Source: a virus
Taxonomy: Duplodnaviria > Heunggongvirae > Uroviricota > Caudoviricetes
Reading direction: 5' to 3' (one strand)
DNA: 14,368 nt
Virus record (IMG/VR): IMGVR_UViG_2541047946_000011
Shown here piece after piece: positions 1,120-14,368 of this stretch; the stretch's first letter is position 1, and each line of letters opens with the position of its first letter. Under the pieces are notes generated by a model, which worked only from the letters and a program-made list of their open reading frames with translations, ran no database searches and was not told the DNA's origin. The translations under genes were made by a program, and so were the position numbers.

Positions 1120-1134
1120 ATTTGTGGAGTGAGT

Positions 1135-3489
1135 ATGGCAGTACAGATTTCAGGTGTGCTGAAAGATGGTGCGGGAAAACCAATACAGAACTGCACTATT
1201 CAACTGAAGGCAAAGCGTAACAGCACCACGGTACTGGTGAACACGGTGGCCTCTGAAAATCCGGATGAAGCCGGGCGTTACAGCATGGATGTTGAGTATG
1301 GCCAGTACAACGTCACCCTGCTGGTTGAAGGTTTTCCGCCTTCACATGCCGGGACCATCACCGTGTATGAAGATTCTAAGCCGGGGACGCTGAATGATTT
1401 TCTCGGTGCCATGACGGAAGAGGATGTCATGCCGGAGGCATTACGCCGTTTTGAGGCTATGGTGGAAGAAGCAGCACGTAACGCTGAAGCTGCCTCTCAG
1501 AGCGCAGCGGCGGCAAAGAAATCCGAAACTGCAGCGGCATCATCGAAGAACGCGGCGAAAACCTCAGAAACGAATGCAGCTAACAGCGCACAGGCGGCAG
1601 CGGCCTCGCAGACTGCATCGGCAAATTCCGCGACAGCAGCTAAAAAATCAGAAACCAACGCGAAAAACAGCGAGACAGCAGCAAAGACGAGCGAAACCAA
1701 CGCAAAGTCCAGCCAGACGGCAGCGAAAACCAGCGAAACGAATGCTAAAGCCAGTGAAACTGCGGCAAAAAACAGCCAGGCTGCAGCAGCTGAAAGCGAG
1801 AGCGCAGCAGCCGGTTCTGCGACTTCAGCAGCTGGATCAGCAACTGCTGCGGCTAACAGCCAGAAAGCTGCGAAGACGAGTGAAACTAACGCAAAGTCCA
1901 GCCAGACGGCAGCGAAGACCAGCGAAACGAATGCCAAAGCCAGCGAAACTGCGGCAAAAAACAGTCAGGATGCAGCGGCCCAAAGCGAGAGTGCCGCAGC
2001 TGGTTCTGCAAGTGCGGCAGCTAATAGCCAAAAAGCTGCAAAAACCAGTGAAACTAACGCAAAGACGAGTGAAACAAAAGCAGCAGCCAGCGAGATAGAA
2101 GCAACGTCAGCCGCAACAAGAGCAGAGAATGCAGCCCGGATTGCAGAAGATGCCGCTGATCCTGCTTCAGTCCCTCCGCTTCCTGATATCTGGCTACCCT
2201 TGAATGATTCTCTGGAAGCGATAACAGGGTATGCCCCGGGCTATAAAACAATAACCATCGGCAGTGATGAAATAACAATGCCTGTTAATGGCATATGCCA
2301 ATTTAGCCGCGCTTCATCAGCAACGTATATTGATAAGTCCGGGCATATTACCGTGGCAGGGAATAACGTTCCTCGTTTTGAAAAATATGGTTTGCTGATA
2401 GAGAATCAGCGAACAAACATGTTCGTAAATAGTTTTAATCCTGATGCGTGGAATAAAAGCGGTGGTATATCTGTAACATCATCAACAGATGAATTTGAGT
2501 TTAAATATGGACGTTTCACAGTAGGAAGTGAGATAGCAGGAACGACAACAGGGAGAAATATATGCACAGTTGCTGGTAATAAAGGCATAGATGTGACTGG
2601 CGATGATCAGTACAGTAAAGGTCCGTATGTTACCGCGTCGTTCAGGGTAAGAAGTGATCTCAATGTTCGCGCACGTATCCGTTTTGAACGGTATAACTCG
2701 GAAGGATACACTTTCCTTTGTGACGCCTATTTGTCATTACAGACTCATGAACTACAAATTACGGGTGGTAATGCCCAGCTATTAACAGCAAACTTTGAAA
2801 TCGACCCTGGTAGTGGATGGATATATTTTCAGGCAACACTGAAATGTCTGCCAGAATGGGGAATGGTTGGTACGCAGCTGCAAATTGCAGCCGACAGAGC
2901 AGTGGGGGCTTTTGCAACAGGTGACTGGATAGAAGTAACCACCCCGCAATTCGAGTATGGTGCTTGTGCAACTTCCTTTATCATAACGACAACAGAGCCA
3001 GCGACTCGTGCATCAGATTTATGTAAATTTCCGCTGATGAAAAATATGTATACCATGCCTTTTACGTTCATGGTGGAAGTCCATAAAAACTGGTTTATTT
3101 CTCATAATGCTGCACCGCGTGTCATTGATTCAGAAAATCACCAGTCCGGAGGCCCATTTATTATGGGGTTTGGTTCTTCTGGAACTATCAGTCAGGATGG
3201 TTATTCGTATTGCGATATAGGCGGGGCTAACCGGCGTGTATATGAGTCATGCGGAGTAAGAGATCTCGTTATGGGATTCAGGGTTAAGGCTGACGGCATG
3301 ACATGCTCATTTGCAAATAAGAATATAAGCACTGAAACCAAAACAGTATGGAAATATATTCGTGAAGCAGCCGTGATTCGTATCGGGGGGCAAACGACGA
3401 CAGGATTACGACACCTTAATGGTCATATAAAAAACCTCCGTTTCTGGAACAGAGCATTGTCAGATACGCAGCTTAAGGAATACGTATAA
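1135..3489 (+). CDS. stf: Side tail fiber protein (lambda Stf-like N-terminus, Ala/Ser/Thr-rich repeat shaft, divergent C-terminal receptor-binding region with LamG-like C-terminal motif)
   Basis: ATG at 1135 preceded by GGAG (1126-1129); the track ORF starts at an upstream GTG at 1129. N-terminus MAVQISGVLKDGAGKPIQNCTIQLKAKRNSTTVLVNTV...GRYSMDVEYGQY...FPPSHAGTITVYEDS closely resembles lambda Stf. C-terminal end ...HLNGHIKNLRFWNRALSDTQLKEYV resembles the C-terminal motif of concanavalin/LamG-like jelly-roll domains. Stop TAA at 3487-3489. Confidence 0.85.
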   Translation: MAVQISGVLKDGAGKPIQNCTIQLKAKRNSTTVLVNTVASENPDEAGRYSMDVEYGQYNVTLLVEGFPPSHAGTITVYEDSKPGTLNDFLGAMTEEDVMPEALRRFEAMVEEAARNAEAASQSAAAAKKSETAAASSKNAAKTSETNAANSAQAAAASQTASANSATAAKKSETNAKNSETAAKTSETNAKSSQTAAKTSETNAKASETAAKNSQAAAAESESAAAGSATSAAGSATAAANSQKAAKTSETNAKSSQTAAKTSETNAKASETAAKNSQDAAAQSESAAAGSASAAANSQKAAKTSETNAKTSETKAAASEIEATSAATRAENAARIAEDAADPASVPPLPDIWLPLNDSLEAITGYAPGYKTITIGSDEITMPVNGICQFSRASSATYIDKSGHITVAGNNVPRFEKYGLLIENQRTNMFVNSFNPDAWNKSGGISVTSSTDEFEFKYGRFTVGSEIAGTTTGRNICTVAGNKGIDVTGDDQYSKGPYVTASFRVRSDLNVRARIRFERYNSEGYTFLCDAYLSLQTHELQITGGNAQLLTANFEIDPGSGWIYFQATLKCLPEWGMVGTQLQIAADRAVGAFATGDWIEVTTPQFEYGACATSFIITTTEPATRASDLCKFPLMKNMYTMPFTFMVEVHKNWFISHNAAPRVIDSENHQSGGPFIMGFGSSGTISQDGYSYCDIGGANRRVYESCGVRDLVMGFRVKADGMTCSFANKNISTETKTVWKYIREAAVIRIGGQTTTGLRHLNGHIKNLRFWNRALSDTQLKEYV
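1500..2100 (+). repeat. In-frame tandem repeats inside stf (about 189-bp / 63-aa period; AAKTSETNAKSSQTAAKTSETNAKASETAAKNSQ units)
   Basis: A near-identical DNA unit starts at 1681 and again at 1870 (gcaaagacgagcgaaaccaacgcaaagtccagccagacggcagcgaa vs gcgaagacgagtgaaactaacgcaaagtccagccagacggcagcgaa). Shorter degenerate AAKxSETNA repeats flank them. This low-complexity DNA also produces long spurious ORFs in other frames. Confidence 0.75.
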
Positions 3490-3758
3490 TGCGGGATATA
3501 ACATTACGATTCGATAACAGAGAACAGTTTAACGCAATTGTATATGACAGTGGCCTGTTCAGTCTTGAAGAAGAAAATGGGGTTCTTGTTGATGTTATTG
3601 GCTGCATTATTGATTACGAGGAGCCAGAAAACGAAAGATGTACAGGCATTGATCGCGGTGGTTTTTTCGTAAACATGAGGATTGTTGATGGCAGTAAAAA
3701 CATATCTTCTTTAATGCCTTTCATTACGACAGATCAGCATGTAAGGACATGGGCTTAA
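3489..3758 (+). CDS. Hypothetical 89-aa protein, translationally coupled to stf (possible tail fiber accessory or chaperone; not lambda Tfa-like)
   Basis: Its ATG (3489-3491) overlaps the stf stop in a TAATG arrangement. AT-rich like the stf 3' half. No recognisable motif. Occupies the position where lambda has tfa. Confidence 0.5.
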   Translation: MRDITLRFDNREQFNAIVYDSGLFSLEEENGVLVDVIGCIIDYEEPENERCTGIDRGGFFVNMRIVDGSKNISSLMPFITTDQHVRTWA

Positions 3759-4441
3759 TGGAGTAAGACAATGGTTACAAAAACAGTAATTCCTGATGAC
3801 ATCAAAACGCTAAAATCCGATGTTAGTAAACTAAAAACTGATCAAGGAAGCTATGCAACAAAATCATATGTAGACAATAAAACAACATGGAATAGTTATT
3901 GCAATGTAATCTATGATCAAAAGGCATTGCCGACCACTGGAACTATATTTAGCGGTAAGATTCACTTGTCAAATAAGACTGGTGAAACGGAAAACGCTTA
4001 TAGTGATATATATACCAGAAAAAATATTGATGGTACTAAAGATACAATGACGAGGATCGTCACACATAACGGGACAAAAGGTATCTTTTGGGACTTTAGT
4101 GATCTTTACGGAGGAACTTTAATTTTCCCTGGCACTGCTGGTTATTTGAAAATGGGTAAATGCCTCATGTCCTATGGGGATCGTGTAGATAATGCCCTGA
4201 TTAAATTTGATTATACAGACACACTACAGATCAAATATGCTAATCATGGTTCGACCATGACACTAAACACACAGGGAACCGCTCACGCTGGCGTTACTGC
4301 TAAATTGTGGGGCAATTCTAGCCGTCCGGTTGTTTATGAAGTTGGTGTAGATGGTGGGGCTTTTATATTCTTCGGTCAAAAACAAACAGATGACACATAT
4401 GCATTTGCTGTTAATGGTGCATGTCAAGCGACCGCATTTAA

Positions 4442-4446
4442 CCAGA
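4442..4446. repeat. IS2 target-site duplication, left copy (CCAGA)
   Basis: CCAGA lies immediately left of the IS2 left end and is repeated at 5778-5782 immediately right of the IS2 right end. Confidence 0.8.
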
Positions 4447-4537
4447 TAGACTGGCCCCCTGAATCACCAGACAACCAATATCACTTATTTAAGTGATAGT
4501 CTTAATACTAGTTTTTAGGCTAGTCATTGGAGAGCAG

Positions 4538-4903
4538 ATGATTGATGTCTTAGGACCGGAGAAACGCAGACGGCGTACCACACAGGAAAAGATCGCAATT
4601 GTTCAGCAGAGCTTTGAACCAGGGATGACGGTCTCCCTCGTTGCCCGGCAACATGGTGTAGCAGCCAGCCAGTTATTTCTCTGGCGTAAGCAATACCAGG
4701 AAGGAAGTCTTACTGCTGTCGCCGCCGGAGAACAGGTTGTTCCTGCCTCTGAACTTGCTGCCGCCATGAAGCAGATTAAAGAACTCCAGCGCCTGCTCGG
4801 CAAGAAAACGATGGAAAATGAACTCCTCAAAGAAGCCGTTGAATATGGACGGGCAAAAAAGTGGATAGCGCACGCGCCCTTATTGCCCGGGGATGGGGAG
4901 TAA
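4538..4903 (+). CDS. insC: IS2 transposase OrfA (InsC)
   Basis: [56 protein letters not shown]... is recognisably IS2 InsC. ATG at 4538 with GGAG at 4529-4532. The track ORF from 4493 includes IS-end sequence upstream of the real start. Confidence 0.9.
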
Positions 4904-5766
4904 GCTTAGTCAGCCGTTGTCTCCGGGTGTCGCGTGCGCAGTTGCACGTCATTCTCAGACGAACCGATGACTGGATGGATGGCCGCCGCAGTCGTCACAC
5001 TGATGATACGGATGTGCTTCTCCGTATACACCATGTTATCGGAGAGCTGCCCACGTATGGTTATCGTCGGGTATGGGCGCTGCTTCGCAGACAGGCAGAA
5101 CTTGATGGTATGCCTGCGATCAATGCCAAACGTGTTTACCGGATCATGCGCCAGAATGCGCTGTTGCTTGAGCGAAAACCTGCTGTACCGCCATCGAAAC
5201 GGGCACATACAGGCAGAGTGGCTGTGAAAGAAAGTAATCAGCGATGGTGCTCTGACGGGTTCGAGTTCCGCTGTGATAACGGAGAAAAACTGCGAGTCAC
5301 GTTCGCGCTGGACTGCTGTGACCGTGAGGCACTGCACTGGGCGGTCACTACGGGCGGCTTCAACAGTGAAACAGTACAGGACGTCATGCTGGGAGCGGTG
5401 GAACGCCGCTTCGGCAACGAGCTTCCGGCGTCTCCAGTAGAGTGGCTGACGGATAATGGTTCATGCTACCGGGCTAATGAAACACGGCAGTTTGCCCGGA
5501 TGTTGGGGCTTGAACCGAAGAGCACGGCGGTGCGGAGTCCGGAGAGTAACGGCATAGCAGAGAGCTTCGTGAAAACGATAAAGCGTGACTACATCAGTGT
5601 CATGCCCAAACCAGACGGGTTAACGGCAGCAAAGAACCTTGCAGAGGCGTTCGAGCATTATAACGAATGGCATCCGCATAGTGCACTGGGTTATCGCTCG
5701 CCACGGGAATATCTACGGCAGCAAGCCAGTAATGGGTTAAGTGATAACAGGTGTCTGGAAATATAG
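4861..5766 (+). CDS. insD: IS2 transposase OrfB (InsD; DDE integrase domain, normally made as an InsCD fusion by -1 frameshift)
   Basis: [77 protein letters not shown]... is recognisably IS2 InsD. It overlaps insC in the -1 frame; slippery AAAAAAG lies at about 4854-4860. Confidence 0.9.
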
Positions 5767-5777
5767 GGGCAAATCCA

Positions 5778-5782
5778 CCAGA
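5778..5782. repeat. IS2 target-site duplication, right copy (CCAGA)
   Basis: Identical to 4442-4446. Confidence 0.8.
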
Positions 5783-6119
5783 CCTCTGACCGAGACCTGA
5801 AAGATAATATTCAGGTGATTGATAATGCAACCAATCGCATCCGTAAGATGAATGGTTATACATACACGCTTAAAGAAAACGGGATGCCTTACGCTGGTGT
5901 TATCGCACAGGAAGCCTTAGAAGCAATTCCAGAGTCCGTAGGCTCTACGATAAAATATAGGGACGGTGGTAGCGGATCTGAAGGCGAAGAAGGTGAACGG
6001 TATTACACTGTAGATTATTCTGGTGTTACTGGCTTGCTTGTTCAGGTAGCCAGAGAGTCAGACGACAGGATAACAGCACTGGAAGAAGAAAACGCAGAAT
6101 TAAGACAAAGATTATCTGC

Positions 6120-6127
6120 AATTGAGG
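6120..6127. repeat. IS66-family target-site duplication, left copy (AATTGAGG)
   Basis: The 8-bp AATTGAGG immediately precedes the GTAAGCGT terminus at 6128 and recurs at 8660-8667 after the opposite terminus. An 8-bp duplication is typical of the IS66 family. Confidence 0.75.
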
Positions 6128-6212
6128 GTAAGCGTAAACTGACCGCCGTATGTAGCCATCAGACGAGAATTGGTAACTTAGACGCCCATCTGATATAGAC
6201 GGACATCTAAGT

Positions 6213-6638
6213 ATGGAATTACAGGACTGGCGAAAAGAACCTCGTAAAAACTATTCGAATGAATTCAAACTTCGTATGGTGGAACTGGCATCACAACCTG
6301 GAGCTTGTGTTGCACAGATTGCACGTGAAAATGGCGTCAATGATAATGTTATTTTCAAATGGCTCAGGCTCTGGCAGAACGAAGGGCGTGTTTCGCGGCG
6401 TCTTCCGGTAACGACCTCTTCTGACACTGGCGTTGAATTATTACCTGTAGAAATAACGCCGGATGAGCAGAAAGAACCTGTGGCGGCCATTGCGCCGTCT
6501 TTATCCACTTCCACTCAGACCAGAGTCAGTGCCAGTTCCTGCAAGGTGGAATTCCGTCACGGTAACATGACGCTGGAAAATCCATCGCCAGAGCTGCTCA
6601 CAGTGTTGATCCGTGAACTGACCGGGAGGGGAAGATGA
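6213..6638 (+). CDS. tnpA: IS66-family accessory protein TnpA (orf1)
   Basis: MELQDWRKEPRKNYSNEFKLRMVELASQPGACVAQIARENGVNDNVIFKWLRLW... is typical IS66 orf1; its stop overlaps the tnpB start. Confidence 0.85.
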   Translation: MELQDWRKEPRKNYSNEFKLRMVELASQPGACVAQIARENGVNDNVIFKWLRLWQNEGRVSRRLPVTTSSDTGVELLPVEITPDEQKEPVAAIAPSLSTSTQTRVSASSCKVEFRHGNMTLENPSPELLTVLIRELTGRGR

Positions 6639-6985
6639 TCTCACTCCCATCAGGTACCCGTATCTGGCTCGTTGCCGGCGTTACCGATATGCGTAAATCC
6701 TTCAACGGACTGGGAGAACAGGTACAACATGTGCTGAATGATAATCCCTTCTCCGGTCACCTGTTTATCTTCCGTGGCCGACGGGGTGACACCGTCAAAA
6801 TTCTTTGGGCTGATGCTGATGGTCTGTGCCTGTTCACCAAACGCCTGGAGGAAGGCCAGTTTATCTGGCCTGCGGTACGTGACGGCAAGGTATCCATTAC
6901 CCGCTCGCAACTGGCAATGCTCCTCGATAAGCTGGACTGGCGTCAGCCAAAAACATCCAGCCGTAACTCACTGACAATGTTGTAA
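6635..6985 (+). CDS. tnpB: IS66-family accessory protein TnpB (orf2)
   Basis: MISLPSGTRIWLVAGVTDMRKSFNGLGEQVQHVLNDNPFSGHLFIFRGRRGDTVKILWADADGLCLFTKRLE... is the highly conserved IS66 orf2. Confidence 0.9.
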   Translation: MISLPSGTRIWLVAGVTDMRKSFNGLGEQVQHVLNDNPFSGHLFIFRGRRGDTVKILWADADGLCLFTKRLEEGQFIWPAVRDGKVSITRSQLAMLLDKLDWRQPKTSSRNSLTML

Positions 6986-7015
6986 AAAACTCCTGACCGC
7001 ATTATAAAAACGGTC

Positions 7016-8629
7016 ATGAGTCAGAAATACCTCATTCGCATCGCAGAGCTGGAAAGGTTGCTCTCTGAGCAGGCTGAAGCCCTCCGTCAGAAAGACCAGC
7101 AACTGAGTCTGGTTGAAGAGACGGAAGCCTTCCTGCGCTCTGCACTGACACGTGCCGAAGAAAAGATCGAAGAAGATGAACGGGAAATAGAACATCTGCG
7201 GGCTCAGATAGAAAAACTGCGCCGGATGCTGTTCGGTACCCGTTCTGAAAAACTGCGTCGTGAAGTTGAACTGGCTGAGGCTCTGCTGAAACAACGTGAA
7301 CAGGACAGCGATCGTTACAGTGGGCGGGAAGACGATCCTCAGGTTCCCCGCCAGTTGCGACAGTCGCGCCATCGTCGTCCGTTACCGGCACACCTTCCCC
7401 GTGAAATACACCGCCTGGAGCCAGAAGAAAGCTGTTGCCCGGAGTGTGGCGGTGAGCTGGATTATCTGGGGGAAGTCAGCGCTGAACAGCTGGAACTGGT
7501 GAGCAGTGCCCTGAAAGTGATCCGCACAGAACGGGTAAAAAAAGCCTGTACAAAATGTGACTGTATTGTTGAAGCACCGGCGCCGTCCCGCCCGATAGAG
7601 CGTGGTATCGCGGGCCCCGGATTACTTGCCCGCGTGTTAACGGGAAAATACTGCGAACATCTGCCACTGTATCGTCAGAGTGAAATCTTTGCCCGCCAGG
7701 GTGTCGAACTGAGCCGGGCCTTACTCTCCAACTGGGTTGACGCGTGCTGCCAGTTAATGACACCGGTGAATGATGCCCTGTACCGTTATGTAATGAACAC
7801 CCGCAAGGTTCACACTGATGACACACCGGTAAAGGTACTGGCACCGGGTCAGAAAAAGGCGAAAACAGGGCGTATCTGGACGTATGTCCGGGATGATCGC
7901 AATGTGGGTTCGTCATCTCCTCCAGCGGTCTGGTTCGCGTACTCGCCGAACCGGCAGGGGAAACACCCGGAGCAACACCTCCGCCCCTTCCGGGGTATCC
8001 TGCAGGCGGATGCGTTCACAGGTTACGACAGGTTGTTCAGTGCAGAACGTGAAGGTGGTGCACTGACAGAAGTTGCGTGCTGGGCCCATGCCCGGCGAAA
8101 AATCCACGATGTATACATCAGCAGCAAAAGTGCGACGGCAGAAGAAGCCCTGAAGCGAATCAGTGAACTGTACGCCATCGAGGATGAAATACGGGGATTA
8201 CCGGAGTCAGAGCGTCTTGCCGTCAGGCAGCAGCGAAGCAAAGTGTTACTGACGTCGCTGCATGAATGGATGGTGGAGAAGAATGGTACGCTGTCGAAAA
8301 AATCCAGACTGGGCGAAGCGTTCAGCTATGTACTGAATCAGTGGGATGCCCTCTGTTATTACAGTGATGACGGTCTGGCGGAGGCGGATAATAATGCTGC
8401 GGAAAGAGCGCTTCGTGCAGTCTGTCTCGGAAAGAAAAACTTTATGTTCTTTGGCAGCGATCACGGCGGCGAGCGTGGAGCACTGTTGTACGGGCTGATC
8501 GGCACCTGCCGTCTGAACGGTATCGATCCGGAAGCGTATCTGCGCCATATCCTGAGCGTACTGCCGGAATGGCCTTCCAACCGAGTTGACGAACTCCTGC
8601 CATGGAACGTAGTACTCACCAATAAATAA
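7016..8629 (+). CDS. tnpC: IS66-family transposase TnpC (orf3)
   Basis: 537 aa with an N-terminal coiled-coil/leucine-zipper region, a CxxC...CxxC zinc-finger-like motif (CPECGGE...CTKCDC) and a DDE-type core, as expected for IS66 transposases. Confidence 0.9.
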   Translation: MSQKYLIRIAELERLLSEQAEALRQKDQQLSLVEETEAFLRSALTRAEEKIEEDEREIEHLRAQIEKLRRMLFGTRSEKLRREVELAEALLKQREQDSDRYSGREDDPQVPRQLRQSRHRRPLPAHLPREIHRLEPEESCCPECGGELDYLGEVSAEQLELVSSALKVIRTERVKKACTKCDCIVEAPAPSRPIERGIAGPGLLARVLTGKYCEHLPLYRQSEIFARQGVELSRALLSNWVDACCQLMTPVNDALYRYVMNTRKVHTDDTPVKVLAPGQKKAKTGRIWTYVRDDRNVGSSSPPAVWFAYSPNRQGKHPEQHLRPFRGILQADAFTGYDRLFSAEREGGALTEVACWAHARRKIHDVYISSKSATAEEALKRISELYAIEDEIRGLPESERLAVRQQRSKVLLTSLHEWMVEKNGTLSKKSRLGEAFSYVLNQWDALCYYSDDGLAEADNNAAERALRAVCLGKKNFMFFGSDHGGERGALLYGLIGTCRLNGIDPEAYLRHILSVLPEWPSNRVDELLPWNVVLTNK

Positions 8630-8659
8630 GCGTCAATACGGTGCTCCGTTGACGCTTAC

Positions 8660-8693: not shown

Positions 8694-8716
8694 GGGGCCG
8701 AGCGCCCCGTTTTATT
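8694..8716 (+). terminator. Putative intrinsic terminator after the reconstructed tail-fiber gene
   Basis: GGGGC (8694-8698), loop CGAGC, GCCCC (8704-8708), then GTTTTATT. Lies directly after the TAA at 8685-8687. Confidence 0.5.
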
Positions 8717-8723
8717 GGGTAGG

Positions 8724-9017
8724 ATGAAAATGGATATAACACCTTTCCTTCATGCGCTTTGTGCTGTGGCTGCGCAGCTACTGATTGGTCTTTTTACCGG
8801 AAACTGGGCTTACGGGGCGATAGCCGGTTGTACGTTCTTCATTGCGCGTGAACACACCCAGGCAGAATATCGCTGGATTGAAATGTTCGGGCATGGCAAG
8901 CGTATGAATATGCCGTGGTGGGGCGGTTTTGATCCTCGTGCATGGGATGTGGCTAGCCTGATGGATTTTGCTGTGCCGGTGGTGGCGTGTCTGCTGGTCT
9001 GGCTGTTGATCCGTTAA
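8724..9017 (+). CDS. Small hypothetical membrane protein (two predicted hydrophobic helices), b-region cargo gene
   Basis: Track ORF 8715-9017; likely start ATG at 8724 or 8730, with AGGA at 8721-8724. Hydrophobic stretches FLHALCAVAAQLLIGLFTG and FAVPVVACLLVWLLI. Function not recognised. Confidence 0.5.
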   Translation: MKMDITPFLHALCAVAAQLLIGLFTGNWAYGAIAGCTFFIAREHTQAEYRWIEMFGHGKRMNMPWWGGFDPRAWDVASLMDFAVPVVACLLVWLLIR

Positions 9018-9262: not shown

Positions 9263-10078
9263 TCAACTAACAACCCAATCATCAGATAATATATCACTGA
9301 TATTGAAAATATAGGTATGGTTATTTTTACCATCTGAAATGACGATTTTTTTTAAGTTGAATCTTTCTGATATGATATGCGTTGCAAATTGTGGGATTAT
9401 TAAAAACAAAGCCTCTACCTTACTGATTAATTCAATGTTGACTTTAGGTCTGAAGTTTGCATCATGAACCACTTTGTGCCTAATGTAAAATGCTTCCTCT
9501 ATGAGGGCTCTCCAGTCTGGAAATATATTTTCTATCGATAAACCTTGGGAAATTTGGCCACTCAGACCGCAAGGAGATATATTAGTTGTACATATGTAGT
9601 TTAAAAAACTCTCACCCCACATGCCATTATATGCTTCTTCAAGGTCGTTTAAGTTTTGAAAGTTAAAGCTTTTACTCAATAACTCTGATAGATTTATCTC
9701 AGTGTTTATATTGATAGATGTTTCTGTTCTCATTTTAGATAGTAGTGTTGTAATTCTAGATTCATCAACTGAATGCACGAAAACAAAAACGTCTCTAAAA
9801 TATGTTTCCCAGCAACTGATTAGAAATACAAAATATTGTCGATATGCTGTTTTATAAATATCTATTTTCTTATCTTTCGTTGAAATAAGTGAATGCATAA
9901 GTCGACAATTTTCTGCAAAATTTAGTAGGAAAGACATTGAGAAGTCTTCTATAGCTCCTCTTGATTCGCGAAGAGATAGCAATTCATCAATAATTTTTTT
10001 ATTGATTTTCCTAATCTTTTTCAATTGCATGCCTCGTTTTTGCTTAAGTAAAGTTGATTTTGGAGTTTCGTCAATCAT
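9263..10078 (-). CDS. Hypothetical 271-aa protein, strongly AT-rich; HEPN-like Rx4H motif (possible Abi-like RNase)
   Basis: Long minus-strand ORF, visibly lower GC than its neighbours, Lys/Ile/Asn-rich. Contains ...EEAFYIRHKVVHDANF... (R-x4-H) in the C-terminal half. No other family recognised by eye. Confidence 0.6.
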   Translation of the reverse strand: MIDETPKSTLLKQKRGMQLKKIRKINKKIIDELLSLRESRGAIEDFSMSFLLNFAENCRLMHSLISTKDKKIDIYKTAYRQYFVFLISCWETYFRDVFVFVHSVDESRITTLLSKMRTETSININTEINLSELLSKSFNFQNLNDLEEAYNGMWGESFLNYICTTNISPCGLSGQISQGLSIENIFPDWRALIEEAFYIRHKVVHDANFRPKVNIELISKVEALFLIIPQFATHIISERFNLKKIVISDGKNNHTYIFNISDILSDDWVVS

Positions 10079-10554: not shown

Positions 10555-11679
10555 TTAATCGGTAAATTCATAGTTTGGCCGCATTGAGAAACGCCACAGA
10601 GGCAGGCCTCCCCCTTTGTAATCATCAGGGATGGTTACCGTGAAAAGTCTGACATTCTGCCGGGTGTCAACTGACCTGATCTGGCTGTCGTGTACAGTCT
10701 GCTCGTTAAAGGCCGACGTGACCAGCGAACTCAGCGTACCTATAAAGTCGAAACCCTGTCTTTTGTAATTTTCGTCGTCTTCCGGGGAAAATGTGTATCG
10801 GATGCTCTCAAGCTGACCATCAGTGAATATTGCCTCCGATCCGGGGCAGAGCCACTCTCCGTAGCGCATCAGATGAAACGCCGTGTTCATTTCAAATTTA
10901 TCCGTTACTTGTCTGTCATTGCAGTAAATTTTAATCTCGCCAATTGTAAAATGGGCGATGCCTTCGGGACTAACTGAAACTTCTTTGGTCCGGTCGGGGA
11001 TAAGCTCAAAAACCAGATCGGGTTCTGTTGCTATCGATAGGTCGCCCAGCAGGTACATCTCACTTTTTGCGAGCGCCGAGGCCGGCGTCAAGGTATGTTC
11101 ACGCTCTAGCTCCTTCATTGAGGAGCGTGCAACCAGCGCCCACCGGCGCAGCATCCTGATGTAGATGGCATAATAAACTGGAATACCATGGAGCTCACCG
11201 TACTTTTCAACCTTATCACTGTACGATTTCTTCAGGCGATAATCGTCAGCCACGTCATCCGCGTTAAAGTTTTTTACTTCCACAAAGATCTGACGGCGAT
11301 CCTTCAGTATAATGCGATAGTCAGGTGCCACCAGATCGGGATCGGCTGACATCAAGTCTCCGGCGTCTTCCTGTTTAAGAAACTGGCAGTGGTTCAGTGC
11401 GGCGCAAACGTGTTTAAATAGGTTTTCTATTCTTTTCCCGTTCAGCAGAATTGGATTCTGATGGGAAGCGATTAATGACGTGGTGACCTTTTGTATAAAG
11501 TCATCCTGGTGCTCGGGGTTTTTAATATCGTAATTATAGATCTGGCCCAACGAGGAAAAAAGCTCAAAGGCTTCAAATCGTTCGGGATTCCTCTTGATTC
11601 TTTCCATTAATGACTCCGCAGCTAATAAATACAACGAAATGAGATCACTTGTTTCTCTGAAGTTACCTGAAAACTGCAT
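10555..11679 (-). CDS. Hypothetical 374-aa protein with a PD-(D/E)xK nuclease-like motif (candidate defense effector)
   Basis: Minus-strand ORF starting 69 bp downstream of the FRG gene stop. Contains ...LVAPDYRIILKDRRQIFVEVKNFNADD..., i.e. a D in a hydrophobic strand followed 15 residues later by E-V-K, the spacing and context of restriction-endonuclease-fold active sites. No strong Shine-Dalgarno before the first ATG, so the start is uncertain. Confidence 0.7.
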   Translation of the reverse strand: MQFSGNFRETSDLISLYLLAAESLMERIKRNPERFEAFELFSSLGQIYNYDIKNPEHQDDFIQKVTTSLIASHQNPILLNGKRIENLFKHVCAALNHCQFLKQEDAGDLMSADPDLVAPDYRIILKDRRQIFVEVKNFNADDVADDYRLKKSYSDKVEKYGELHGIPVYYAIYIRMLRRWALVARSSMKELEREHTLTPASALAKSEMYLLGDLSIATEPDLVFELIPDRTKEVSVSPEGIAHFTIGEIKIYCNDRQVTDKFEMNTAFHLMRYGEWLCPGSEAIFTDGQLESIRYTFSPEDDENYKRQGFDFIGTLSSLVTSAFNEQTVHDSQIRSVDTRQNVRLFTVTIPDDYKGGGLPLWRFSMRPNYEFTD

Positions 11680-11748: not shown

Positions 11749-13119
11749 TCAGATTCGTCCATCGTATAGTTTTGCAATTTCCGTAGCAGCCTTCTCAATG
11801 CCGGGGTACACCGTGCTTTCGTTAATGCCAAGGCGGCTCAGTTGCTGCATCAGATGCTCTTTGTTTCTAATAACAAGCTTTTTGATGTTCAGCGTACTGA
11901 GTCCCGTTTCCGGTAGGTCTACGTTTTCACCAAAGAGCAGGAAAGCGCCTGATTGGGACGAAATACGTGCGTTACTGAGCCTACCTTTGACCACAACAAT
12001 TTTACTTAGGTGGACCGGATCGATGATGCTTTTGAAATAGGACTTTTCATCGCGGATCAGGTGTAGTAGTTGTCCGCACTCTTCAGATTCGTTAAACGCC
12101 GGAATGGTGAGATTAGTTTTCAGGCTGCTTTTGAAACGAGAGGGAAGACGGGAAAGATTGGCTATGCAACTTACGGTATCCGAGTCGAAAAACTTAATTT
12201 CACTTTTGGGCGTCGTCAGAATAATGACGTTCCCGTCAATTTCATGATTATTTTCATCGTGCTTGATTTTAGAGCAGGCAAAATATAGTGCGATCAAGGG
12301 GTTTGTTGATACATCAAGCAGGCGTGTGGGTAGGCCATAGTGTTGCATGCGCACGAGTTTATCTAGCATATACCGATCGTCTTTGAACTCGGCGGGCTGC
12401 ACGGTCAGCAGCTCTGTTATCATGTCCGATTCGTGATGGCGGTAGCGATAGTTACCCTGAGTATCCTTGCGGAACAGTGAGGGTTCCAGTTGGTAGCTGA
12501 TGTCCGAGTGACCGCGGTAAAATACCTCTTCATCGTTTCCCTGTGTATGATCGAGTATCACCTGCAAGTACTGATTGATATTCGCAATGATCTCTAGTTC
12601 TTCATTATTCTCCGGTGCTTCCGCACTCGCTGTTGCGGGCTCAACATTAGAATAGCCTTCAAGGCCTAAAACACGCAGAATCTCATTTACGGAAATCTCT
12701 TTGACCGCCCAGAACGTTCTGTTTAGTCCGAAACTGCCCAGCTCCAGCTCACTTACGTACTCTTTATCGCTGGTTAAGGGCTTGTAGCCGATATCACTGG
12801 TAATCTCATAATCAAACGCTAAAACTTTTTCTCTGTTATACACGGACGTACTTATCTTGCTGATTTTTCCTAAGCGGATGTGGCTGAAATAACCTATTTT
12901 TTCATTATCTTCATCGAATTCAATTTCCGGCTCGGACATAAATACAACGGGCAGTTCCTGAAGAAAATGATAGGTTTTTTCAGTCAGGGGAAGCAATCTG
13001 CTTCTAAGAGACTCTGGCGTGGATTCGAAGAGTCGCGACACAGGGAAAGAGTCATTGCCACTGGGTTCAGAAAAAAAAGTGTAGTATTTGGGGGTTCCGA
13101 CAACGATAAGATTCAGCAT
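11749..13119 (-). CDS. Hypothetical 456-aa protein with an FRG domain (candidate defense sensor/partner), first gene of the minus-strand pair
   Basis: Contains FYRGHSDISYQLEPSLFRK, ...MQHYGLPTRLLDVSTNPLIALYFAC and ...NARISSQSGAFLLFG, which match the FRG-domain hallmark motifs as I remember them. The N-terminal ~190 aa are unrecognised. GAGGA lies 8 nt upstream of the ATG at 13119. Confidence 0.75.
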   Translation of the reverse strand: MLNLIVVGTPKYYTFFSEPSGNDSFPVSRLFESTPESLRSRLLPLTEKTYHFLQELPVVFMSEPEIEFDEDNEKIGYFSHIRLGKISKISTSVYNREKVLAFDYEITSDIGYKPLTSDKEYVSELELGSFGLNRTFWAVKEISVNEILRVLGLEGYSNVEPATASAEAPENNEELEIIANINQYLQVILDHTQGNDEEVFYRGHSDISYQLEPSLFRKDTQGNYRYRHHESDMITELLTVQPAEFKDDRYMLDKLVRMQHYGLPTRLLDVSTNPLIALYFACSKIKHDENNHEIDGNVIILTTPKSEIKFFDSDTVSCIANLSRLPSRFKSSLKTNLTIPAFNESEECGQLLHLIRDEKSYFKSIIDPVHLSKIVVVKGRLSNARISSQSGAFLLFGENVDLPETGLSTLNIKKLVIRNKEHLMQQLSRLGINESTVYPGIEKAATEIAKLYDGRI

Positions 13120-13891: not shown

Positions 13892-14368
13892 TTAACTAAA
13901 CATCGCAGTAATCGAGGCGCTTGCCAGAGAGTGGAAATGAACGTTAAACCCGACCATCGCGCCGCTGGCACCTTCATCGACATCAATACGTTCTATATCC
14001 AGCGCGTGAACGGTAAAAATGTAGCGATGAGTTTCGCCTTTCGGCGGTGCTGCGCCATCGTACCCGGTTTTACCAAAGTCGGTACGCGTCTGCAAAACGC
14101 CGTCTGGCATTGCTACCAGACCAGAGCCAAACCCTTGCGGTAATACGCGGGTATCAGCGGGTAAGTTAACAACTACCCAGTGCCACCAGCCGGAGCCGGT
14201 TGGCGCATCCGGGTCGTAGCAGGTGACAACAAAACTTTTCGTTCCCGCAGGAACATCATCCCACGCCAGATGCGGTGAAATATTATCGCCATCGTAACCC
14301 ATGCCGTTAAAGACATGACGATGCGGCAATTTATCGCCATCGCGCAGATCGTTACTGATGAGTTTCAT
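13892..14368 (-). CDS. ybhB: PEBP-family protein YbhB (UPF0098 / kinase-inhibitor-like), host chromosomal gene next to attB-lambda
   Basis: Complete 158-aa minus-strand ORF (MKLISNDLRDGDKLPHRHVFNGMGYDGDNISPHLAWDDVPAGTKSFVVTCYDPDAPTGSGWWHWVVVNLPADTR...). Its start codon is the last three bases of the window. Recognised as E. coli YbhB, whose chromosomal position beside the lambda attachment site agrees with the attR call. Confidence 0.85.
   Translation of the reverse strand: MKLISNDLRDGDKLPHRHVFNGMGYDGDNISPHLAWDDVPAGTKSFVVTCYDPDAPTGSGWWHWVVVNLPADTRVLPQGFGSGLVAMPDGVLQTRTDFGKTGYDGAAPPKGETHRYIFTVHALDIERIDVDEGASGAMVGFNVHFHSLASASITAMFS

Follow-up and report, generated by a model that had tools for sequence, protein, structure and literature searches.

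The mosaic tail fibre is textbook biology, and in lambda the tip of the side tail fibre, Stf, depends on the Tfa chaperone. We analysed the side tail fibre gene stf in a 14,368-nucleotide (nt) stretch of viral DNA (IMG/VR record IMGVR_UViG_2541047946_000011; hereafter, the window), which is the tail end of a lambda-like prophage of Escherichia coli. A described counterpart of its product is Gp22 (bas32_0022) of the Tequintavirus IrisVonRoten. The accessible text of Humolli et al. 2025 (PMC11990801) presents Gp22 as a proximal fibre from whose C-terminal end a 'galectin-like domain' protrudes, possibly as an extra receptor-binding domain; the T-shaped distal fibre Gp24 attaches to Gp22 in an AlphaFold-Multimer model, and the same text states no role in the fibre model for the ~90-amino-acid (aa) protein Gp23. 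We consider it probable that Stf of the window is likewise a proximal side tail fibre and that it is a three-part mosaic, with an imported cassette of lectin-like tip, partner protein and distal fibre.

Stf and Gp22 are 46% identical over Stf aa 130-784, which includes the SETNAK-type stalk and the whole tandem tip. In IrisVonRoten, the fibre gene is then followed by a 92-aa homologue (Gp23) of the open reading frame (ORF) that we call ORF89, and by a distal fibre (Gp24) that carries an S74 chaperone domain and shares the N-terminal peptide. The two systems differ in that IrisVonRoten has a T5-type N-terminal anchor, whereas the anchor here is of the lambda type (PF08400). Its distal fibre is intact and larger (574 aa, T-shaped, two receptor-binding domains), and it is a virulent phage with a guanine-plus-cytosine (GC) content of 40%. 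The branched lateral LtfA/LtfB fibres of the T5-like phages DT57C and DT571/2 are organised in a comparable way: a tail-fixed proximal fibre bears a second fibre, and the two jointly target O-antigens. However, LtfA ends in an S74 domain, not in jelly rolls, and no ~90-aa partner has been described for it. Since LtfA ends in S74, we dropped LtfA/LtfB as homologues; we treat them as an organisational analogue only and claim no homology.

The gene lies directly downstream of the tail-tip gene:

34-1074, + strand: 3' end of J (tail-tip gene), with PF09327 (Phage_Tail_Tip) and PF12421 (GpJ C-terminal receptor-binding domain); the RefSeq record with 100% identity annotates gpJ here.
1135-3489, + strand: stf, side tail fibre, 784 aa, intact; an uninterrupted ORF that matches phrog_1419 and the Stf of PhiR11_1.

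The segment 1129-4496, from stf to the distal fibre, is 100% identical to NZ_CP091756, whose annotation upstream of stf lists tape measure, L, K-like, I and J. The 3' end of J at 34-1074 indicates that stf occupies the lambda position. A single unbroken ORF covers 1129/1135-3489, and translation from the ATG at 1135 gives 784 aa ending in ...GHIKNLRFWNRALSDTQLKEYV before the stop codon. The product aligned over residues 1-784 with positions 1-793 of 793 of phrog_1419 ('tail protein'; 1268 bits). Escherichia phage PhiR11_1 (PV340547), a deposited complete phage genome whose record gives K-12 MG1655 as the host, has an annotated side tail fibre with 99.9% identity to it. A literature search on PhiR11_1 and related PhiR phages found nothing. 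This kind of stf is well populated and already annotated (PHROG 1419; IrisVonRoten Gp22, 2025) and is not new, and the allele itself is public in 141 complete E. coli genomes and in PhiR11_1. The stf findings do not challenge current understanding, and their interest is modest.

The comparison with public records also showed that the RefSeq annotation breaks the intact stf. In NZ_CP091756.1 (3319045-3321399, corresponding to window 1135-3489), RefSeq/PGAP splits the 784-aa ORF in two: a pseudogene fragment, 'prophage tail fiber N-terminal domain', missing its C-terminus, and a separate 403-aa 'phage head spike fiber domain-containing protein', given as a partial coding sequence. The repeat region is left without annotation, and the same split naming occurs in many genomes.

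The first two parts of the fibre are as follows:

1135-1527, + strand: lambda-type N-terminal virion-anchor domain, aa 1-131 (PF08400, E 6e-68; ~85% identity to lambda-type Stf over aa 1-106).
1528-2187, + strand: Ala/Ser/Thr-rich heptad-repeat stalk, aa 132-351 (21/42/189-nt tandem repeats found by TRF; SET motifs; 36% Ala; probable joint at nt ~1996-2022).

The PF08400 domain just downstream of J places the protein among the lambda-type Stf proteins, and it is 60% identical to the lambda-type Stf of HK629 over 286 aa (~85% over the first 106 aa). With lambda Stf/Tfa, the locus shares the position after J, the PF08400 domain and the Ala/Ser/Thr stalk as far as the motif RAENxAxxAEDxA at ~aa 351, up to which the likeness to lambda Stf could be traced. 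Beyond this motif, lambda Stf reads AVALEDADTTRKG, whereas the product here reads PASVPPLPDIWLPLNDSL; no similarity to lambda Stf was found after aa ~351. The tip is unrelated to that of lambda and consists of two jelly rolls, and no Caudo_TAP is present here. Within the stalk, the SET motifs are spaced 7 or 14 aa apart, and the DNA repeat periods are 21, 42 and 189 nt. The 189-nt unit (1666-2022) is present in ~2 copies with 89% matches, and 1666-1833 matches 1855-2022 at 87.5%. The stalk of the lambdoid phage ev243, which carries the same kind of tip, is 95 aa shorter, and stalk length probably varies through repeat recombination.

The GC content of stf falls from 0.538 (1135-2169) to 0.433 (2170-3489; z = 5.1). 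This step could in principle arise with no exchange, where an Ala-rich stalk encoded by GCN codons gives way to an ordinary globular domain. The raw step does fall where the repeats end, and the Ala content and second-position GC (GC2) of the stalk, 0.68, raise the total; part of the raw step at ~2160 is therefore due to Ala. As Ala codons inflate stalk GC, we examined third-position GC (GC3). GC3 likewise dropped, from 0.51 to 0.35, with the best single change point at codon 287 (nt 1996; lnL gain 9.7; 2-lnL interval nt 1720-2032), and low GC3 is common to ORF89 (0.34) and the distal fibre (0.31), compared with 0.57 in J. When nt 1950-2450 were compared with 5426 complete E. coli genomes by megablast, 763 genomes matched, most of the matches stopped at nt 2022, and only 132 genomes matched past this point. 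In addition, the tip allele with ORF89 was present in 141 of the 5426 genomes, whereas 4908 matched some or all of 1129-4496, mainly over the anchor and stalk, and the tip was found on unrelated backbones, as listed below. The GC3 drop, the end of homology, the genome counts and the unrelated backbones refute the compositional explanation, to which we attach next to no weight.

Together, the GC3 change point at nt 1996 and the end of homology at nt 2022 indicate a DNA joint in the stalk repeats. The protein-domain boundary of the tip lies at aa 346-352 (nt 2170-2188), and tblastn matches to other phage families start at aa 345/346 (nt 2170). On this evidence from sequence comparison, the recombination joint is most likely inside the stalk repeats, ~150 nt upstream of the domain boundary; its position fits recombination between repeat units. 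An earlier note on this DNA had described a GC-rich, lambda Stf-like N-terminal part, in agreement with the PF08400 match, the traceable likeness and the GC values, and it had named uniform GC across stf as a refuting result; neither GC nor GC3 is uniform. The note had also placed a switch at ~2160. At the protein level this is accurate to within 10-30 nt, but the DNA joint is ~150 nt further upstream; DNA homology to the common E. coli stf alleles ends at nt 2022 in most genomes. These results fix the exchange boundaries, with the DNA joint most likely among the stalk repeats and the protein module starting from PLPDIW, and they are useful for host-range engineering by tip swap.

The third part of the fibre, the tip, comprises the following:

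2170-2439, + strand: most conserved tip part, aa 346-435 (junction motif PLPDIWLPLNDSL; FSRASSATYIDKSG...PRFE..GLLIE..TN strands; column entropy 0.6-1.6 bits).
2395-3012, + strand: predicted tip domain 1, a beta-sandwich of the GTA head-spike-fibre family, aa 421-626 by hidden Markov model (NF048003; family profile against PDB; model confidence).
3025-3486, + strand: predicted tip domain 2, a LamG/concanavalin-A-like jelly roll, ~aa 631-784, boundaries approximate (PF13385; ends in the NLRFWNRALSDTQLKEYV strand and a helix).

We modelled aa 346-784 as a monomer using AlphaFold2 and an alignment of 52 diverse homologues. The model (pLDDT 86, pTM 0.85) is almost wholly beta-strand and forms two blocks; pLDDT exceeds 90 over most of the domain 1 stretch, and the jelly-roll fold with two curved sheets is present in the prediction. 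Foldseek aligned the whole model with the laminin LG4-5 pair, tandem galectins and the baseplate proteins of phages E217 and Pa193. Domain 1 matched NF048003 (GTA_spike_fiber) with 48.2 bits against a cut-off of 36 (E 1.7e-12; aa 421-626 to profile positions 1-181 of 182). A profile of distant homologues searched against PDB matched, via domain 1, Rcc01080 (5e-34), Pa193 gp46 and E217 gp45 (1e-13) and Sf11 gp17 (5e-12); via domain 2, it gave weak matches to CBM40 and pentraxin. The family profile was needed for the value of 5e-34, as a single-sequence phmmer search against PDB found Rcc01080 only marginally (E 0.0014). PF13385 (Laminin_G_3) matched 35 of the 52 homologues, with a best E of 4.9e-11. 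By sequence profiles and the model, the tip is a predicted tandem of concanavalin-A-like jelly rolls, the first of the GTA-head-spike-fibre type and the second LamG-like.

Conservation is unevenly distributed over the tip. Column entropy is 2-2.7 bits in both domain cores, compared with 0.6-1.6 bits in the framework, and conservation is highest over the first 90 aa of the tip, in the segment between the two domains and in the C-terminal strand. The N-terminal part (aa 346-435) contains invariant alignment columns and is also common to Rcc01080 of RcGTA.

Rcc01080 (GhsB; NF048003; PDB 6TB9 and related entries) is homologous in sequence over these conserved N-terminal strands and domain 1. Present as a single chain on a pentameric base, this fibre binds host capsular polysaccharide (PMC7296036, PMC10218006). 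It differs from the tip in its location on the capsid and in the alignment, which stops at ~284 of 325, without the LamG-like second domain; only residues 2-10 of Rcc01080 are experimentally resolved. By analogy, the fold and this homologue suggest a carbohydrate receptor, and the hypervariable domain cores together with the capsule-binding homologue give indirect support to possible glycan binding. As other possible sources of a receptor for the tip, we considered GSP004 ORF208 and gp28 of Cronobacter phages CRES7/9; the former is a P22-like tailspike and the latter an S74-type beta-helix fibre, and both were rejected as unrelated.

A concanavalin-A fold is also found in glycoside hydrolases and polysaccharide lyases, and the tip might accordingly degrade glycans and depolymerise O-antigen or capsule instead of binding them. 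Beyond this kinship of fold, nothing in the tip spoke for such an enzyme: its top matches are non-catalytic binding modules, an ExDxxE-type (GH16-type) catalytic motif is absent from the tip, and Pfam and NCBIfam returned no hydrolase or lyase family. Moreover, apart from the framework (the junction, the segment between the domains and the C-terminal strand), the domain cores are hypervariable, and no conserved catalytic block could be discerned in them. We consider a degrading enzyme quite improbable.

The tip belongs to a large family (2072 clusters at 50% identity with E <= 0.001), and its relatives, with 34-55% identity, terminate fibres of unrelated backbones:

Lambdoid phage ev243.
Tequintavirus IrisVonRoten, EC100 and ESCO40.
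Seuratvirus VogelGryff.
Dhillonvirus KarlBarth.
Vequintavirus (rV5-like) FFH2.
P2-like prophage fibre with PF12571 and PF03406.

The occurrence of the tip on at least five unrelated fibre backbones shows horizontal exchange, and sequence comparison thus identifies the tip as a horizontally mobile module. Tip GC tracks the resident phage, with values between 0.40 (T5-like phages) and 0.56 (Dhillonvirus); since composition follows the resident phage, no donor can be named. The tip was probably imported as a cassette from an AT-rich coliphage tail-fibre gene pool, via stalk-repeat recombination.

The next gene accompanies the tip:

3489-3758, + strand: ORF89, the ~90-aa partner of the tip (89 aa; phrog_1361), whose ATG overlaps the stf stop codon (TAATG).

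The ORF89 family, phrog_1361, is a PHROG entry without a function. No Caudo_TAP/Tfa (PF02413) gene was found among the window ORFs scanned, and the tip does not pair with a cognate Tfa in the manner of lambda/T4 gp37-type tips; only the anchor and stalk are lambda-type. Homologues of ORF89 with 28-38% identity abut a jelly-roll-tipped fibre in every lineage examined, including the P2-like prophage. We compared 18 partly related loci, not all of them independent; an IMG/VR scan with the ORF89 alignment gave 10 loci. In all 17 loci with upstream sequence, the fibre end ...GH[IV][RK][ND].R.W... meets the start of the small ORF. In 14 of the 18, a further fibre gene that starts with M[VAT]T.T.IP.DI..LK lies within ~13 nt of the small ORF. 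The loci without a distal fibre are ev243, L016 and L018, with only a small membrane protein downstream, and FFH2, with nothing downstream. In the window, the genes lie in the order of a branched cassette (1135-3489, 3489-3758, 3771 onward), and the distal fibre peptide MVTKTVIPDDIKTLK is common to IrisVonRoten-type loci. Judged from these sequences, the exchanged unit is a cassette of the tip, its ~90-aa partner and usually a distal fibre. An uncharacterised ~90-aa protein thus accompanies the tip in every phage lineage examined, and this is the main interest of the locus.

These results bear on the remaining claims of the earlier note. Its expectation of a lectin or jelly-roll fold in the C-terminal part is borne out by the model, which is tandem and concanavalin-A-like. 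The C-terminal sequence that it quoted matches the ORF end exactly and, as a LamG-like motif, aligns with the last strands of PF13385; this alignment is below the cut-off in Stf itself, although the family matches most of the homologues, and there are two jelly-roll domains, not one. The note was right that the tip had been swapped horizontally, as the same tip occurs on unrelated backbones, and that tfa is absent and an unrelated 89-aa ORF stands in its place. The cassette nature of the exchanged unit had been missed.

In the mechanism that we propose, the lambda-type N-terminal domain would plug Stf into the tail tip. The heptad stalk, probably trimeric and alpha-helical, would carry the tip, and its repeats are the likely recombination substrate. 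From aa ~346, two predicted concanavalin-A-like beta-sandwiches that fold autonomously would form the tip. The lectin-like head of each chain may bind a surface polysaccharide (O-antigen, capsule or LPS) via the hypervariable cores, resulting in reversible primary adsorption. The tip framework and the translationally coupled ORF89 would hold the N-terminal peptide of the distal fibre, giving a branched fibre. Jelly-roll heads would fold without a trimerisation chaperone, which would make Tfa unneeded.

Several points weigh against this proposal. In Stf itself, PF13385 scores 20.8 bits against a gathering threshold of 27.6 (E 4.7e-4) and covers the last ~48 aa only (aa 733-780 to profile positions 104-150 of 151). 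Sugar-binding residues in the tip were not identified. The tip was modelled as a monomer, whereas the stalk is presumed to be trimeric. The ORF89 model is moderately confident, showing a small alpha/beta fold without informative structural neighbours, and the loci behind the synteny counts are not all independent. Finally, the neighbour that spans most of the tip model, Pa193 gp46/E217 gp45, is a fibre-docking baseplate protein and not a lectin. This likeness favours a docking role, and the tip may serve as a docking hub, either in addition to being the main receptor-binding domain or in place of that function.

In its strongest form, the docking idea, which is the main alternative, holds that the tip is mainly a branching hub, which docks the N-terminal peptide of the distal fibre with ORF89 as an adaptor, and that the distal fibre is the real determinant of host specificity. 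The conserved order of tip, ~90-aa ORF and distal fibre is consistent with this, as is the N-terminal peptide, which is kept in 14 of 18 loci across siphoviruses and myoviruses, and within the tip, conservation peaks over the first 90 aa, between the two domains and at the C-terminal strand. The homology of domain 1 to E217 gp45 (8ENV) and Pa193 gp46 (9B45) points the same way. Unlike the tip of Stf, these Pbunavirus baseplate proteins and the distal tail protein Sf11 gp17 (9OCC) are not fibre tips. E217 gp45 is a baseplate subunit and the attachment site of the trimeric tail fibre (PMC10329688). According to the accessible part of the Sf11 report, gp17 docks tailspikes, though through a segment different from the homologous one, and the part of Humolli et al. 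cited above models the distal fibre attached to the Gp22 homologue (PMC11990801). However, the tip and small ORF are kept without a distal fibre in ev243, L016, L018 and the rV5-like FFH2. Both cores are hypervariable, which is expected of a surface that contacts receptors but not of a fixed socket, and the RcGTA homologue binds capsule and docks nothing. The branching and receptor roles are, moreover, compatible. We therefore regard a tip that serves mainly as a hub as rather unlikely.

Residues ~186-426 of Sf11 gp17 (PDB 9OCC chain C), an unresolved 'large extra appendage', are homologous to domain 1 (profile E 5e-12). The accessible text of the Sf11 paper does not mention the relationship.

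With regard to ORF89, an adaptor in the virion has to be weighed against a non-structural chaperone, a Tfa analogue outside the virion that would assist folding or assembly of the tip. In favour of the chaperone, ORF89 sits at the tfa position with its start overlapping the stf stop codon, and all 17 loci with upstream sequence pair it with the tip, both with and without a distal fibre. Its product is a small, acidic protein that is modelled as a simple alpha/beta fold. In contrast, concanavalin-A-like domains normally fold unaided, and domain 1 also occurs in the RcGTA head spike fibre and in the Pbunavirus and Sf11 proteins (a partner gene was not looked for there). ORF89 also showed no similarity to any chaperone family in family searches. 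A chaperone role is a real possibility, although we doubt it. Returning to the adaptor, we tentatively propose that the tip framework, ORF89 as a structural adaptor of the virion and the M(V/A)T.T.IP.DI..LK peptide could make up a portable plug-and-socket, with domain 1 as a general monomeric glycan-binding add-on of GTA head spikes, Dit appendages, myovirus baseplates and fibre tips. If true, the plug-and-socket would enable siphoviruses and myoviruses with unrelated tails to assemble branched fibres and to exchange their distal receptor binders without restriction, and ORF89 would be a virion component that had so far been overlooked.

The distal fibre gene of the window is disrupted by two insertion sequence (IS) elements:

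3771-4446, + strand: 5' part of the distal (second) fibre gene (phrog_4563, tail fibre; N-terminal peptide MVTKTVIPDDIKTLK).
4447-5776, + strand: IS3-family insertion (IS2-like, ~1.33 kb) in the distal fibre gene (absent from PhiR11_1; 6-nt joint overlap; HTH_Tnp_1 and rve; IS3-family transposase annotation).
5777-6127, + strand: 3' remnant of the distal fibre with the S74 intramolecular chaperone domain (100% identical to PhiR11_1 8307-8657; PF13884 Peptidase_S74).
6128-8658, + strand: IS66-family element ISEc23 (absent from PhiR11_1; 9-nt joint overlap; annotated tnpA, tnpB and ISEc23 transposase).

In PhiR11_1, the distal fibre gene is intact and encodes 346 aa (1041 nt). The insertion point of ISEc23 is 20 nt before the distal fibre stop codon, and the 6-nt and 9-nt joint overlaps look like target duplications. 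The IS elements leave stf and ORF89 untouched; with both insertions in the distal fibre gene, only Stf and ORF89 of the fibre cassette are intact in the window prophage. In strain MMC-J-0105 (H1), an IS3-family transposase lies within the match, and PhiR11_1 is without either insertion. Distal fibres vary in length and have their own folding aid: an S74 domain here and in T5-like phages, and a separate Caudo_TAP protein in the P2-like case. In that P2-like prophage (L009, GCA_012920285.1; 6613-8026), a 330-aa ORF missed by the gene caller encodes a distal fibre that carries the conserved N-terminal docking peptide; downstream of this ORF lies a 139-aa Caudo_TAP gene. The classical Tfa of this myovirus appears to serve the distal fibre and not the jelly-roll-tipped, H-like fibre.

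After the fibre cassette, the window encodes a 100-aa predicted membrane protein (MDITPFLHALCAVAAQLL...; 8715-9017, + strand) without a family match. In ev243, L016 and L018, where the distal fibre is missing, its homologue directly follows the ORF89 homologue. Three cargo genes lie on the minus strand at the prophage end and are also present in PhiR11_1. The first (9263-10078) encodes a protein of 271 aa whose HEPN (RiboL-PSP) match is below threshold. The second (10555-11679) encodes a 374-aa protein without a family match, beside the third (11749-13119), which encodes a 456-aa FRG-domain protein matching PDC-S15, a candidate defence family of PADLOC (E 7e-99). This cargo may be a phage-borne defence island. 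The last gene, also on the minus strand, belongs to the PEBP family (YbcL/YbhB-like; PF01161, E 6e-42); it covers 13892-14368 and is cut off by the end of the window.

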